Positions 10,524 to 17,936 of a DNA stretch of 22,782 nucleotides are shown one piece after another; the first letter of the stretch is position 1, and every line of letters begins with the position of its first letter. Position numbers and translations under genes: made by a program. The stretch is from IMG/VR virus record IMGVR_UViG_2778261160_000006, positions 1-22,782 of that record. One strand, given 5' to 3'. The notes beneath the pieces are model-generated. The model worked only from the letters and a program-made list of their open reading frames with translations, made no database searches and had not been told where the DNA came from. This DNA is from a virus (lineage: Duplodnaviria; Heunggongvirae; Uroviricota; Caudoviricetes).

Positions 10524-12050
10524 TCAAAAATAAACCTCACCATCAACCATATATTTGAGAGCACTTATCGCCTGCTGGGCGGATATTACTTTCATTAAAG
10601 GATAGTGTTTAAAAACAATGCCATTCATAAAATAGATATCACAGGTTTTATTATCCGTATTAATTATGATTTTTTCGAATGTTTTATAGGCAAGTGTACG
10701 GCATAACTCTCGTCCATTTTTACTGGTTAAGTCAATAGCATAAAAATCACTGAATGAATTTACACCTTTACTCTTCAAAGTTTTCAATGATACCGAAGCC
10801 CTTCTTAATTCCTTATCTAATAGTCTTATTTTCTCTGCTATAGCGGTAACTTCAGGCGCGACAGACAATGCAACGATTAAATTATTAATTTTCATCTGAA
10901 GCTCAATAATTTTTAACTCTAAAGTTTCATTAGCATCTTTCTTGTTTTCAACTGGTTGAATTTTGCTACAATTAAAAAGCAATTCATTAATGATATTATA
11001 ATCAACCAAATCTCTTTTTATTGATGGCCTGTCACATCGATGTAATCTTCTCATCGGACAAACATAATAGCCATGCAAACTTCCAGATACCGCATGAACA
11101 ATCATGGTATTACCACAAGCCTCACACTTCATAACTGTTCGAAGTAGATTTATTAGCATAGGATTCTTGCTACTATTGCTAATACCAAAAGGTGCCAACC
11201 GAATTTCCTGTACAGCGTAAAACAAATCATCTGATATGACTCTGGGATAATAGCCAGCGATTTCACTTATCCCTTTCCCTCTTGCACGATATGAAGGTAC
11301 GCATATACCTATCAGAGCTTTATTCGCTAATAATTTTTCAATTACAGAAGGTCCCCATGCACTTTCTTTTCCTGAGAAATTCTTTACAGCATGATCATTT
11401 AAATACTTGGCTATTGCATTCAATGAGCGCCTTTCCATCCTGAGTTTAAAAATTAGCTCAATAGTTTTCACCCTGTCGGGGTCTGGAACAAAAGCCGTTC
11501 TTTTGTCATCTAAGGAGAGCCATCTCGGACAAGACGCCGTCATAATCGTACCTGATTCCAGTGCATCCTGCCGTTTTTTCTTCCATGATAATTTAACCCG
11601 ACTTGACTTTATCTCGCTTTCTTCATTTGCCCTTTGTGCTATAAGTATGGCTTTTATTAATGAATATGGCTCATTCAAAGAGTCAATATTATAGACTGTA
11701 TTGTCGCAAAGAGTTATAACATCAATACCGTGATTCAAAATCAATTTCAGACGTTCAATCGCTTCACCGACTTTTTCTCTTGAAAGTCTGTCCAGACTTT
11801 CAACTAACAATGTAGTTCCTGGCAATATATAACCATGCTCTATAGCATCTAAAAATTCCGAAAAAGCTCCTGATTGTGCATGCTTTCCTTTGAATGCACT
11901 TAATCCTAAATCTTCATATGTTATGGTATCAAGATAATAATCACTATTTACCTTTAACCATTCAGCAATAAGTCTTCTCTGTCGGTTTAATGAGTCGCCA
12001 GACATCTGACCTGGTGATGAAAATCGCATATATGCTATGGCTTTTTTCAT
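10524..12050 (-). CDS. ybcK: Large serine recombinase (resolvase/invertase-type catalytic N-domain, recombinase domain and Cys-rich zinc-ribbon region), 508 aa
   Basis: N-terminal catalytic motif AIAYMRFSSPGQ with the nucleophilic Ser, a Cys cluster CEACGNT...YYVCP...HRC, and a C-terminal coiled coil. The gene is strongly AT-rich, and the length and sequence match DLP12 YbcK. Confidence 0.88.
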   Translation of the reverse strand: MKKAIAYMRFSSPGQMSGDSLNRQRRLIAEWLKVNSDYYLDTITYEDLGLSAFKGKHAQSGAFSEFLDAIEHGYILPGTTLLVESLDRLSREKVGEAIERLKLILNHGIDVITLCDNTVYNIDSLNEPYSLIKAILIAQRANEESEIKSSRVKLSWKKKRQDALESGTIMTASCPRWLSLDDKRTAFVPDPDRVKTIELIFKLRMERRSLNAIAKYLNDHAVKNFSGKESAWGPSVIEKLLANKALIGICVPSYRARGKGISEIAGYYPRVISDDLFYAVQEIRLAPFGISNSSKNPMLINLLRTVMKCEACGNTMIVHAVSGSLHGYYVCPMRRLHRCDRPSIKRDLVDYNIINELLFNCSKIQPVENKKDANETLELKIIELQMKINNLIVALSVAPEVTAIAEKIRLLDKELRRASVSLKTLKSKGVNSFSDFYAIDLTSKNGRELCRTLAYKTFEKIIINTDNKTCDIYFMNGIVFKHYPLMKVISAQQAISALKYMVDGEVYF

Positions 12051-12235
12051 GGTGACACCTGCTAACGTATGCTTTTATAAACCTTAGTGGTGGGATATAA
12101 TTTTTGTTTAATTTTTATTTAAAAAGACAATTAAGGTCACATTATCTTGAATATACAACAATAATCGTATTGCAATTTTCTTACGCCATAATCTTGAAAG
12201 CACAAAAGAACACATAAAAAAATAAAGACATTAAC

Positions 12236-12275
12236 AAAAAGCATAAAACGAGGCTCATATAAATATAAGAGCCTC
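12236..12275 (-). terminator. Rho-independent terminator downstream of emrE (GAGGCTC stem, AT-rich loop, U-tract)
   Basis: 7-bp perfect inverted repeat at 12250-12256 / 12269-12275 followed on the - strand by GTTTTATGCTTTTTG. Confidence 0.5.
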
Positions 12276-12306
12276 CATATTTTAGTCGTTTAGAAACAAA
12301 TTATTT

Positions 12307-12639
12307 TTAATGTGGTGTGCTTCGTGACAATAGATTAATAACCAACACACCGGCACAAATCAACATCATGCCTATAATGGCTGGCAGGTCCAGCCGTTGG
12401 CCGAAAAGTCCCCATGACAGTAAGCTAATCAGGACAATACCGACTCCTGACCAGATAGCATAAGCAATCCCTGTAGGAATATAAGCCAGCGTCTGAGCTA
12501 ATAACCAGAATGATGCACAATAACAAATAATTGTACCAACAGATGGCCATAACCGTGTAAAACCTTCTGAAAACTTCATTAAGGTTGTACCAATGACCTC
12601 TGCAAGTATTGCACCACCAAGATAAATATAAGGGTTCAT
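12307..12639 (-). CDS. emrE: Small multidrug resistance (SMR) efflux transporter EmrE, 110 aa
   Basis: MNPYIYLGGAILAEVIGTTLMKFSEGFTRLWPSVGTIICYCASFWLLAQTLAYIPTGIAYAIWSGVGIVLISLLSWG... has four TM helices and the conserved Glu14. The ORF-track N-terminal extension is probably not translated. Confidence 0.92.
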   Translation of the reverse strand: MNPYIYLGGAILAEVIGTTLMKFSEGFTRLWPSVGTIICYCASFWLLAQTLAYIPTGIAYAIWSGVGIVLISLLSWGLFGQRLDLPAIIGMMLICAGVLVINLLSRSTPH

Positions 12640-12798
12640 AGCATATTCTTTCCTGTTCAAACTGGAGAGAATTGTACTACAGTTTGAACTCAACTCACCT
12701 GTTTCATCATTGTGTACCCATTGATGTTCTTTTATATACCCTCAATACCCGTTTCATCGCGGCACTCTGGCGACACTCCTTAAAAATCAGATTCGTGC

Positions 12799-15516: not shown

Positions 15517-15626
15517 TATCAATTCCTATTGGTATTGCAACGAATAAATAATAGCAATGCGTATTAATCATAACAATAGCAAAACGTGTTTTGACCATCA
15601 ATACGCAAGCGTATAAATTAAAACTT
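15517..15626. promoter_or_regulatory. OR-like divergent control region: repeated AATAGCAA / TTGCTATT operator-like motifs, a putative pR on the - strand (-35 TTGTTA, 17 nt, -10 TATTAT) and a putative pRM on the + strand (-35 TTGACC, 16 nt, -10 ATAAAT) ending 8 nt before the cI ATG
   Basis: Read directly from the sequence. Similar ATAGC-containing motifs recur at the OL-like site at 17400-17450, and both regulators share the recognition-helix motif GVAQPT(V/I)WR. Confidence 0.55.
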
Positions 15627-16319
15627 ATGAAAAAAGAAACTCTTGCTGATCGCTTAAACCTAGCGATGGAACAATCTGGAATGTCTCAAGGCGCTCTTGC
15701 AAAGGCGTCTGGCGTAGCTCAACCCACAATCTGGAGACTGACAAGCGGCAACGCGCGCGGCTCAACAAAAATTGTTGAAATAGCTAATGCATTGGGTGTT
15801 CGAACAGAATGGCTCTCATCAGGCATAGGCCCGATGAGAAATGACGGTCAACAATTAGGGAAGCCTACTGCCAACCATCCCAAATACTTCAAGATTGACG
15901 TTCTTGATATAGAAGTGAGTGCCGGGCCGGGAGTCATCAACCGTGAGTTTGTAGAAGTTCTACGCTCGGTTGAGTACTCGTTTGACGATGCTCGTCACAT
16001 GTTCGATGGTAGGAAGGCAGAAAATATCCGCATCATTAACGTGCGTGGTGACAGCATGTCAGGAACGATCGAACCAGGTGATCTGCTGTTCGTTGATATC
16101 ACGGTTAAATCTTTCGACGGTGATGGCATCTATGCGTTTCTGTACGACGACACCGCCCATGTAAAGCGCCTGCAAATGATGAAGGATAAGCTGCTGGTTA
16201 TCTCTGATAACAAGAGCTACTCACCGTGGGACCCGATCGAGAAAGACGAGATGAACCGGGTGTTCATCTTCGGTAAGGTTATTGGGAGCATGCCCCAGAC
16301 GTACAGGAAACATGGATAA
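15627..16319 (+). CDS. cI: CI-like prophage repressor: N-terminal XRE-type HTH plus C-terminal LexA/S24 autopeptidase domain, 230 aa from MKKETL
   Basis: HTH MSQGALAKASGVAQPTIWRL, an Ala-Gly candidate cleavage site (EVSAGPG), the Ser nucleophile in VRGDSMSGTIEPGD and the Lys in HVKRL. The ORF-track TTG start at 15591 coincides with the putative -35 element. Confidence 0.85.
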   Translation: MKKETLADRLNLAMEQSGMSQGALAKASGVAQPTIWRLTSGNARGSTKIVEIANALGVRTEWLSSGIGPMRNDGQQLGKPTANHPKYFKIDVLDIEVSAGPGVINREFVEVLRSVEYSFDDARHMFDGRKAENIRIINVRGDSMSGTIEPGDLLFVDITVKSFDGDGIYAFLYDDTAHVKRLQMMKDKLLVISDNKSYSPWDPIEKDEMNRVFIFGKVIGSMPQTYRKHG

Positions 16320-16385
16320 TCAGTACTGTGCTGATGAGTCGTTTAGGGGATAGTAAATTTAATTAGAATTAGACGAGAGCGATTT

Positions 16386-17249
16386 ATGGATTGTGACGCT
16401 TTACAGGATATAAAAATCTCTCTTAGGTATGACGGAAAAGATGCTTTAAATCATGAAATAGATTTGAACTGCCTAGGAGAATCCCTAAAGGGTTTTTCTA
16501 AAGTTCTCTCAACAGCAGCTTCTTTCTCTGTTACACAAAAATATAGTAAATACATTAATTATCAGGAAGTTAAGGTTTACGCACGCGAAGCAAAAGCTAA
16601 CTGCTTTACTCTTGAAGCAGTTCTTAACTTCGCCACTCAGAACCAGTTGTTCTCGGGGATCGCCGCAACTATACTTGGCGCAATACTACAATATATTTTT
16701 GCGAGAAATTCTAACAAGAAAGATGAAATGAAAGCTTTGCAGCAGTCACTTGAAAAGGCCATAGAGGCACTAGGAAACAAGGATGCTGGAACCATTGATA
16801 AGTTGATCTCTTTGATTGACCGAATGGCTGTAGAGCTTCGCCCCTCTGTAAGGCAGGCAGTATCACCTATTGGTAATACTTGCGATCAGATAAGTGTTGC
16901 AACAAATGTTGACGGCTGCCTTCTAAAAGTTAACGAGAGAGATAAAGCTGAAATTGATAGGCTTGATGATGATGAAGTTCTCGGTCTTCGTGAGTATCGT
17001 GCTTTTCTTACAGAATTTGATGCACAAAATATGACAGCTAAAATAATTTTAGATGGTGATGACTCAAAAAAGAGAATCACTGCTGAAATTAGCGATCCAG
17101 CTGCAGGAAAGAAGAATAACCCGTATATTAGAGCTCTTAGTGCATATATATCAACCAAAGGTGATCCATCTGCAGTATTCACTATAACCGCAAAGGCTAC
17201 TGTTAAAAAAGGCCAGATAAACAGGTTATTTATTGTAGATGCGAAATGA
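16386..17249 (+). CDS. Hypothetical 287-aa protein in the rexAB position (directly downstream of cI, same strand); AT-rich, with one central hydrophobic segment and a predicted coiled-coil region; candidate lysogen-expressed exclusion or defence gene
   Basis: A clean ORF with markedly lower GC than cI, sitting 66 nt after the cI stop and followed by a strong intrinsic terminator. It has a hydrophobic stretch [19 protein letters not shown] and no similarity to RexA/RexB that I can see. Confidence 0.6.
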
Positions 17250-17253
17250 TTTC

Positions 17254-17280
17254 CCCGGCCGTCGTGCCGGGTTTTCTTTT
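17254..17280 (+). terminator. Rho-independent terminator of the cI / 287-aa transcript (CCCGGC-loop-GCCGGG followed by TTTTCTTTT)
   Basis: Perfect 6-bp GC stem with a 6-nt loop and a T-tract, immediately after the 287-aa ORF stop. Confidence 0.65.
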
Positions 17281-17399
17281 GCCTCCCCTCATCACACACC
17301 GTTCAAAAAACCACCACAACCTCCCTTCAGTTATCGCTATGCGATGCAAGTCACAAAATTAATTCTTTTTGCTATCAAACAGTTAATATCAAAACACAT

Positions 17400-17455
17400 C
17401 AATCAATAGCTATAAGTATTGATAGCACCAATAGCAATAGCTATTATTACCATGT
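17400..17455 (+). promoter_or_regulatory. pL-like early-left promoter (-35 TTGATA at 17419-17424, 17-nt spacer, -10 TATTAT at 17442-17447) overlapping OL-like operator repeats (CAATAGCTAT, AATAGCAATAGCTATT)
   Basis: Near-consensus sigma-70 hexamers with ideal spacing, overlapped by the same ATAGC motif family found at OR, at the position expected for pL/OL relative to cI. Confidence 0.6.
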
Positions 17456-17645
17456 CGCAACAACACAACGATACGGCAACCACCTGATTCACCGTTGCGA
17501 TGACCGCTTAGATCCGCAGCTTGAATTTCGGCAGGCTCCGGGGAGTGCGAGGGGTGAAACGGACGCGTGAACGTCGGTGTGACCAGCTGAAATCAACTCA
17601 ACTCAACACCTCATACCTCAGTCGCTTCAACGAGGCGGCTTAGTT

Positions 17646-17936
17646 ATGACAACCGGCGGCCATCCACCGCCTGAATACGCGCAGAAGTCTCTATATGTTC
17701 AGCAGCCCAGCTTACGGGCAGGAGTTTTTATGGTTCATCAACATTACGGAACGCAGACCGTTAATCGAGGTGCGGTCATGCCAGGAATGCTGGTCAAACA
17801 CAAAGATGGTACCTGGACTGCATCAGCTAATTTACGCGGACGGCTATATCTGCATCGCGGCATCGAGCGCACTTATACCCGTGATTTGCTCGTAGAAGTT
17901 TTTCTCGACGGACGCGGTAACGGCCTGAATCACTAA
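17646..17936 (+). CDS. Hypothetical protein, up to 96 aa, first ORF of the pL operon in the kil/cIII position
   Basis: ORF with phage-backbone-like GC whose 3' end runs into the 5' region of the lambda long-Gam reading frame in a different frame. I recognise no similarity, and the start codon is uncertain. Confidence 0.35.
   Translation: MTTGGHPPPEYAQKSLYVQQPSLRAGVFMVHQHYGTQTVNRGAVMPGMLVKHKDGTWTASANLRGRLYLHRGIERTYTRDLLVEVFLDGRGNGLNH

Follow-up and report, generated by a model that had tools for sequence, protein, structure and literature searches.

A phi80 40A-family gene in the cargo slot behind the repressor of a lambdoid prophage: a candidate phage-exclusion determinant

What does a prophage carry directly behind its repressor gene, and what might that cargo do for the lysogen? 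The question was raised by a 22,782-nucleotide stretch of viral DNA (IMG/VR record IMGVR_UViG_2778261160_000006, positions 1 to 22,782; hereafter the window). The element is a lambdoid prophage of the Escherichia coli DLP12 (argU) site. Between its cI-type repressor gene and a pL-like promoter, it contains one open reading frame (ORF) encoding 287 residues. A sequence-only reading had assigned this ORF to the position that rexAB occupies in lambda, and proposed it as an undescribed anti-phage or superinfection-exclusion gene. The ORF was found to be a conserved member of the phi80 gene 40A family, located in a slot whose contents are exchanged between related phages. Phage exclusion is the function that we favor for it, tentatively.

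The ORF is a real gene under strong purifying selection. Past the preceding stop, its ATG is the earliest start codon, and it matches the invariant first methionine of the homologues. Comparison with a homologue that is 90% identical in protein yielded a ratio of nonsynonymous to synonymous substitution rates (dN/dS) of 0.06. An antisense ORF of 137 residues (16886–17299) was dismissed, because both conservation and dN/dS favored the plus-strand frame. The gene starts 66 nucleotides past the cI stop codon (16319), on the same strand, and a GAGAG Shine–Dalgarno-like motif lies in this leader, 6 nucleotides 5′ of the ATG. The site scan scored no terminator-like or promoter-like site on the plus strand of the gap between cI and the ORF. 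A hairpin (CCCGGC-CGTCGT-GCCGGG, then TTTTCTTTT) begins 5 nucleotides past the ORF stop. Its RNA folding energy was −17.7 kcal/mol (z = −3.4 against shuffled sequences). Positions and scan thus agreed with the initial placement of the ORF: it occupies the cI-to-pL slot in the orientation of cI, and one terminator follows. They also confirmed that this strong intrinsic terminator (17254–17281) stands ahead of a pL-like sigma-70 promoter (17419–17447; TTGATA-17-TATTAT, 10 of 12 matches). The guanine–cytosine (GC) content of the ORF is 0.384, with 0.295 at third codon positions (GC3), as compared with 0.482 and 0.519 for cI. The values for other genes are 0.48 for O, 0.54 for P, and 0.52 for bet, with P, bet, and exo spanning 0.52–0.54. 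The ORF thus lies clearly below cI and the replication genes, as first noticed, which fits horizontal acquisition.

The borders of the slot emerged from phages that share the repressor. The cI gene is approximately 97% identical in Perceval, 4A7, and the PhiR series. Homology of the window to these phages ends at 16318/16319, the cI stop codon, and restarts at 17252/17254, the start of the terminator. What lies in between differs. Perceval has a 340-residue protein and a 168-residue protein annotated 'transmembrane protein', 4A7 and PhiR47_2 have GevT/GevA, PhiR5_1 has HipA/HipD, and PhiR26_1 has a BamE-like lipoprotein, while the slot is empty in PhiR34_1. GevT/GevA match the PADLOC candidates PDC-M11A/B (2.9e-133 and 6.8e-52), and HipA/HipD match PDC-M66A/B. 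The sequence-only reading had asked whether different unrelated genes occupy this slot in related prophages, and they do: behind this cI, the cargos are unrelated or absent. The terminator is common to all alternative cargos behind the same cI. Behind other repressor types, the nucleotide homology spans the ORF up to approximately 17283 and includes the terminator, which therefore looks like a shared right-hand joint. In these alignments, the joints of the exchange look like the cI stop codon on the left and the terminator on the right, and the cI-to-pL slot is a genuine exchange site with precise borders. Lysogen-expressed exclusion genes near cI include nun in HK022 and stk in 933W. The cI–N region has been described as a mosaic hotspot, which holds rexAB in lambda and bstA in BTP1, presumably with a shared repressor promoter (PMC8585504).

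The position of the family is conserved independently of the repressor. We collected 91 homologue loci, comprising phi80, 6 exact look-ups, 8 GTDB species genomes, and 76 of 78 loci from IMG/VR. A cI-like gene with a helix-turn-helix (HTH) and an S24 domain lies directly upstream on the same strand in 79 loci, to which inspection added 3 more. At 60% identity, the repressors form 18 clusters, and proteins sharing at least 80% identity with the window protein occur behind 6 of these. The exceptions are as follows. In Serratia, 1.6 kb separate the gene from an AbiD homologue; in Erwinia, it is preceded by a Tlde1-domain gene; in Rahnella-type loci, two DinI-like genes precede it; and in a Burkholderiaceae metagenome-assembled genome, it stands away from any repressor. 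Vitreoscilla sp. C1 (locus L004, 6001–9274) carries two cargos behind one cI, the DUF7946 gene and then a 537-residue SIR2/ThsA-like protein, which matches PADLOC PDC-S25 (2e-142).

The sequence-only reading had found that the protein resembles nothing nameable. This holds for function, but not for cataloguing. Pfam assigned residues 11–191 to DUF7946 (3.8e-55, 187.2 bits) and residues 201–287 to DUF7947 (1.4e-18, 67.1 bits), both with a cut-off of 27 bits, and PHROG 5147 ('unknown function') covered residues 1–287 (1.5e-178). Among the 97 family members aligned, all match DUF7946 and 96 match DUF7947. The protein is identical to RefSeq WP_000340376.1, a 'hypothetical protein'. Its exact sequence occurs on at least 1,000 contigs, none of which gives it a functional name. 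Matches to a holin, a formate-dehydrogenase transmembrane family, and S20 were insignificant (E ≥ 0.07), and membership in 'LAPAL motif putative phage structural protein' was rejected (26 bits, cut-off 60). When 1.84 billion cluster representatives were searched with a profile, 497 relatives emerged; those among the matches listed are mostly of approximately 280 residues and aligned along the whole profile. The architecture is kept across approximately 500 clusters at 50% identity. The hosts of the homologue loci extend from Escherichia, Klebsiella, Enterobacter, and Morganella to Vitreoscilla, Neisseria, and Mannheimia. Other domain architectures were sought with a profile of the N-terminal 130 residues, which returned fragments of the DUF7946/DUF7947 family alone. 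The distribution of the gene is patchy: of 5,426 complete E. coli genomes, 77 carry identical DNA, chromosomal in every case. An IS1 element splits the gene in the complete genome of E. coli VG1046-3E9, and a frameshift splits it in a viral contig (locus L099, 1738–2642); the gene is therefore occasionally inactivated.

The closest named relative is phi80 gene 40A (UniProt P14817; YP_007947967.1). Its product shares 62% identity with the window protein across 99% of the length and has the same Pfam architecture. The gene also occupies the same slot, from cI to oL/pL, on the same strand, but the cI and the phage backbone are different. Gene 40A is itself uncharacterized, although known since 1988. 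The old X13065 record divides the phi80 gene into 40A and 40B, probably because of a sequencing frameshift. A GenBank note gives the phi80 protein an 'acetate kinase superfamily domain' (locus L003, 4001–4867). This label was not reproduced for the window protein, which, at 62% identity, matched no acetate-kinase family in Pfam at E ≤ 1; the phi80 protein was not scanned. Literature searches with DUF7946, DUF7947, PDC-S42, protein 40A, GevT, HipD, and the accessions, PHROG, and Pfam identifiers retrieved no relevant paper.

The AlphaFold model built from the 97-sequence alignment was confident, with a predicted local distance difference test (pLDDT) of 91.3 and a predicted template modeling score (pTM) of 0.75. 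It starts with a strand at 9–16, a short helix at 18–22, a helix at 27–50, and strands at 62–67 and 75–82. The hydrophobic helix (87–108) follows, and after it a helical hairpin (112–128 and 134–158, the latter arm made of helices 134–150 and 152–158). A β-hairpin (168–182), a helix (184–192), and a barrel (197–286) complete the chain. The N-terminal α/β part of DUF7946 bears the motif YDG..A..H....L..S..G. The C-terminal domain has an OB fold: a barrel of five strands, with a helix lying between the third and the fourth, that is superimposable on known OB folds and matches best the periplasmic SilF/CusF-type proteins. Across the family, D237 is invariant, and G17, S33, G36, P161, G163, P238, Y247, and K270 are nearly so. 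The net charge of the OB domain is +4 in the window protein versus a family mean of −1.9.

The single central hydrophobic segment described at the outset was recovered. Residues 88–106 form the sole 19-residue Kyte–Doolittle window above 1.6, with a peak of 1.85, the position of which is shared by 92 of 106 family representatives. Its flanks are asymmetric, with 0.41 Lys and Arg per 15 residues on the N side versus 3.57 on the C side, and the asymmetry recurs in 95 of the 97 members. As a membrane span, the helix is equivocal. The coiled-coil region that the sequence-only reading had predicted beside this segment is at most putative; the AlphaFold model shows a helical hairpin at 112–128 and 134–158.

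A published model, DefensePredictor (DeWeirdt, Mahoney & Laub, Science 2026; PMC13092281), places WP_000340376.1 in its 'uncharacterized clusters', with the label 'Predicted novel defense gene' (Tables S5 and S10). Its mean log-odds were 6.28 in the analysis of 69 strains and 7.45 in that of 3,000 strains, with a cut-off of 4 (PMC13092281). The tables in which that study gives its screened units, its plaque counts, and its validated domains do not contain the accession (PMC13092281), which was therefore predicted, not screened. Since the family stands in Pfam, PHROG, and UniProt (P14817), and this protein in DefensePredictor, the term 'undescribed' needs to be qualified. In PADLOC, the window protein weakly matches PDC-S42, a single-gene candidate with a profile of 302 positions (E = 1.5e-4, 19 bits; residues 9–127 on profile positions 4–113). 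Altogether, 47 of the 97 members match this profile, with a best E value of 3.2e-8. The match looks more like a distant relationship of the N-terminal part than like membership. PDC-S42 was the only link to a defense catalogue, and no validated defense protein similar to the window protein was found.

We compared the gene with known systems of similar position or build. Lambda RexA/RexB share the slot between cI and oL/pL and the cI-strand orientation, and their proposed logic is alike, with a cytoplasmic sensor and a membrane effector. Rex, however, consists of two genes, whereas the window cassette (16320–17253) holds a single ORF. RexB is a multi-pass protein, and this polytopic build contrasts with the window protein, which has at most one marginal hydrophobic helix. 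RexB is reported to act as a membrane ion channel (PMC8585504). The alignment of the 97-sequence family profile by hhalign gave probabilities of 0.2% for RexA and 0.1% for RexB, that is, no detectable relationship, in line with the initial impression that the protein is unlike either. BstA of the Salmonella prophage BTP1 is similar in organization: a single lysogen-expressed gene directly 3′ of cI that has a Rho-independent terminator of its own and occurs behind diverse repressors (PMC8585504). It is reported to localize to sites of phage DNA replication and to have an anti-BstA (aba) DNA element (PMC8585504). No BstA-type domain was detected in the window protein, for which the Pfam and PADLOC scans gave DUF7946, DUF7947, and the weak PDC-S42 match alone. 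Profile scans detected no SieB, holin, or nuclease domain either. SNIPE (PD-lambda-1) is a single nuclease that has an inner-membrane anchor, a periplasmic N terminus, and cytoplasmic sensor and effector domains, which defends at DNA injection (PMC13190303). It combines DUF4041 with a GIY-YIG nuclease, and neither of these was detected in the window protein. In kind, the system is a variation on a familiar pattern, that of a cargo gene behind cI, presumably expressed in the lysogen.

With the above results in hand, we favor an anti-phage function of some sort for the 287-residue protein, with a probability that we place a little short of even. The anatomy argues for it: the gene lies on the cI strand, behind a gap free of terminators and ahead of a strong one. 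So does the slot, a hotspot that receives PDC-M11- and PDC-M66-type cargos here, rexAB in lambda, and bstA in BTP1, and so does the persistence of this position behind 18 repressor clusters. The matches of nearly half of the members to PDC-S42 and the DefensePredictor log-odds above the cut-off point the same way. Defense-type neighbors occur both away from cI (AbiD in Serratia) and within a shared slot (the SIR2/ThsA-like protein in Vitreoscilla). Finally, the gene is real and selected, low in GC3, and patchy among E. coli genomes.

The favored reading may be pictured as follows. Positions 16320–17253 form an accessory cassette, horizontally exchanged, which is bounded by the stop codon of cI on one side and, on the other, by the terminator ahead of oL/pL. 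Judging from the anatomy, pRM would drive its single cargo gene together with cI in the lysogen, and the transcript would end at the shared terminator. The product would be a one-protein, lysogen-expressed phage-exclusion determinant. Its C-terminal OB fold would recognize a cue from the phage, which might be a protein or an intermediate of nucleic acid. In response, the DUF7946 module would act at the inner membrane by way of the conserved hydrophobic helix, either a permanent anchor there or a segment set free upon activation. Entry would be blocked or the infection aborted, as if the RexA sensor and the RexB membrane effector were merged in one chain. This specific pairing of an OB sensor with a membrane helix is rather unlikely. 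In a latent version, the helix would be buried in the soluble α/β module and released into the inner membrane once the OB fold binds its cue. That DUF7946/DUF7947 might constitute a widespread, mechanistically new family of single-chain abortive-infection proteins with such latent membrane activity is an improbable proposal; it would also account for phi80 gene 40A.

Several points weigh against phage exclusion or against its proposed mechanism. The DefensePredictor score is not independent of the slot argument, because GC content and four neighboring genes are among its features, and 45% of its tested predictions were validated overall (PMC13092281). PDC-S42, PDC-M11, and PDC-M66 are themselves unvalidated candidates. 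Protection of phi80 lysogens from HK544 and HK578 needs tai (orf63), not 40A (PMC11364771), and a literature search by identifiers found no experiment on WP_000340376.1 or phi80 40A. No catalytic or known effector motif was found in the window protein. Neither the single protein nor the 97-sequence profile retrieved anything like DUF7946 from the PDB, the best match being prefoldin (E = 0.019). The charge of the OB domain is not conserved as basic, so a conserved binding of nucleic acid is not indicated by charge. As for the helix, the summed Hessa free energy is +1.6 kcal/mol here, with a family median of +3.6 and no member at or below 0, and the best 19-residue segment contains a charged residue in 44 of the 97 members. 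No signal peptide was found in the 86-residue N-terminal part, and the deep-alignment AlphaFold model is compact as well as confident.

Three other functions were weighed. The protein could modulate the lysis–lysogeny switch or the induction of its own prophage, with the OB fold sensing an SOS-related signal or binding components of the switch. Such a role, which we consider unlikely, would account for the tight linkage to HTH + S24 (LexA-like, RecA-cleavable) repressors of many specificities and for the DinI-like genes of the Rahnella-type loci. The slot also offers a precedent in RexA/RexB (Thomason et al. 2021, as cited in Genome Research; PMC12315714). However, phages with the same cI manage without the gene, with an unrelated cargo or none, and the gene is therefore not part of the switch. 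Its occurrence away from any repressor in Serratia, Erwinia, and the Burkholderiaceae genome, and an OB charge that is not conserved as basic, also speak against this role.

The gene might instead confer a lysogenic-conversion or fitness trait unrelated to phage, for example an envelope or stress protein, as lambda bor and lom do. We give this little weight. Expression in the lysogen, as expected from the position, the charge asymmetry of the hydrophobic helix in nearly all members, the BamE-like lipoprotein among the alternative cargos, and the periplasmic SilF/CusF-type proteins as the best OB matches would all suit it. Most other known occupants of the slot are, however, of exclusion or toxin–antitoxin type, the signal peptide is missing, and both DefensePredictor and PDC-S42 favor defense. 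Very unlikely, in our judgment, is a selfish passenger, an addiction-type or latent toxic gene retained by its linkage to cI without benefit to the lysogen. Some cargos of the slot are annotated as toxin–antitoxin pairs, and the IS1 and frameshift cases show occasional inactivation, as a passenger would allow. Against this stand a single gene with no partner, strong purifying selection, and the architecture conserved in hundreds of clusters. Phage exclusion thus remains the reading that we favor.

The features of the locus are collected in Table 1.

Table 1. Features of the repressor–cargo locus, in window positions
Feature	Positions	Strand	Basis or content
OR-like operator region with divergent promoters	15523–15619		Promoter scan and operator motifs
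cI-type repressor gene (HTH + S24 autopeptidase)	15627–16319	+	Pfam; ATG read from sequence
Leader of the cargo cassette, 66 nucleotides	16320–16385	+	Sequence
287-residue ORF, DUF7946 + DUF7947 (phi80 40A family)	16386–17249	+	ORF call, Pfam, RefSeq identity
DUF7946 module, residues 11–191	16416–16958	+	α/β part, hydrophobic helix, helical hairpin, β-hairpin
Conserved small-residue-rich hydrophobic helix, residues 87–108	16644–16709	+	Candidate membrane segment, uncertain status
DUF7947 C-terminal OB-fold domain, residues 197–287	16974–17246	+	AlphaFold fold, conserved residues
Intrinsic terminator closing the cI–cargo transcription unit	17254–17281	+	Hairpin scan and folding
oL/pL-like operator–promoter, start of the kil-gam-bet-exo operon	17404–17447	+	Promoter scan, operator motifs

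The upstream gene was identified as a cI-type repressor because its product combines HTH_3 and Phage_CI_repr with Peptidase_S24 (1.5e-18) in Pfam; RefSeq labels it 'S24 family peptidase'. It is flanked on one side by a divergent cro-like gene, a cII-like gene, and the O/P replication genes, and on the other by kil-gam-bet-exo. The promoter scan found a pRM-like promoter at 15591–15619 (plus strand) and a pR-like promoter at 15576–15548 (minus strand). Operator-like CAATAGCAA motifs cluster at 15523–15582 and 17404–17443, and nowhere else. The −10 hexamer of the pRM-like promoter ends at 15619, 7 nucleotides 5′ of the cI ATG (15627). This proximity suggests that the cI–cargo mRNA is leaderless, like the lambda cI mRNA from pRM.

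Downstream of the pL-like promoter (stretch 17448–17936), no N-like antiterminator ORF was found ahead of the kil-like ORF. The kil-like ORF itself spans 17646–17936, and its RefSeq version is shorter and named 'cell division inhibitor'. Rfam detected no known RNA element in the leader of approximately 200 nucleotides past this promoter, nor in or around the cassette; an ALIL match on the opposite strand (17575–17681) was below threshold and probably due to chance. Elsewhere in the window, a second variable cargo slot is suspected in a block of low GC content (0.33–0.41) at 10524–12693 on the minus strand, between ren and the nin region. It contains an EmrE-like SMR transporter (12307–12693) and a large serine recombinase (10524–12050), as in DLP12, and strain 720632 has a NACHT-domain protein at this place. 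Near the terminase end, Rfam matched IS009 (RF02111) at 160–358 on the minus strand with 227.9 bits, well over the gathering score.

If the protein does exclude phages, it would represent a defense family without homology to any characterized system, and a function would be assigned to the classic phi80 gene 40A, unexplained since 1988. The system is tractable, with one gene, its native promoter, the genetics of phi80 and E. coli, and a machine-learning prediction already at hand. If phage exclusion does not hold, the strict linkage to cleavable repressors would suggest an unrecognized accessory of the lysogeny switch. If it does, the position downstream of the repressor would be further documented as a general plug-in site, in which one cargo can replace another between the stop of cI and a common terminator.

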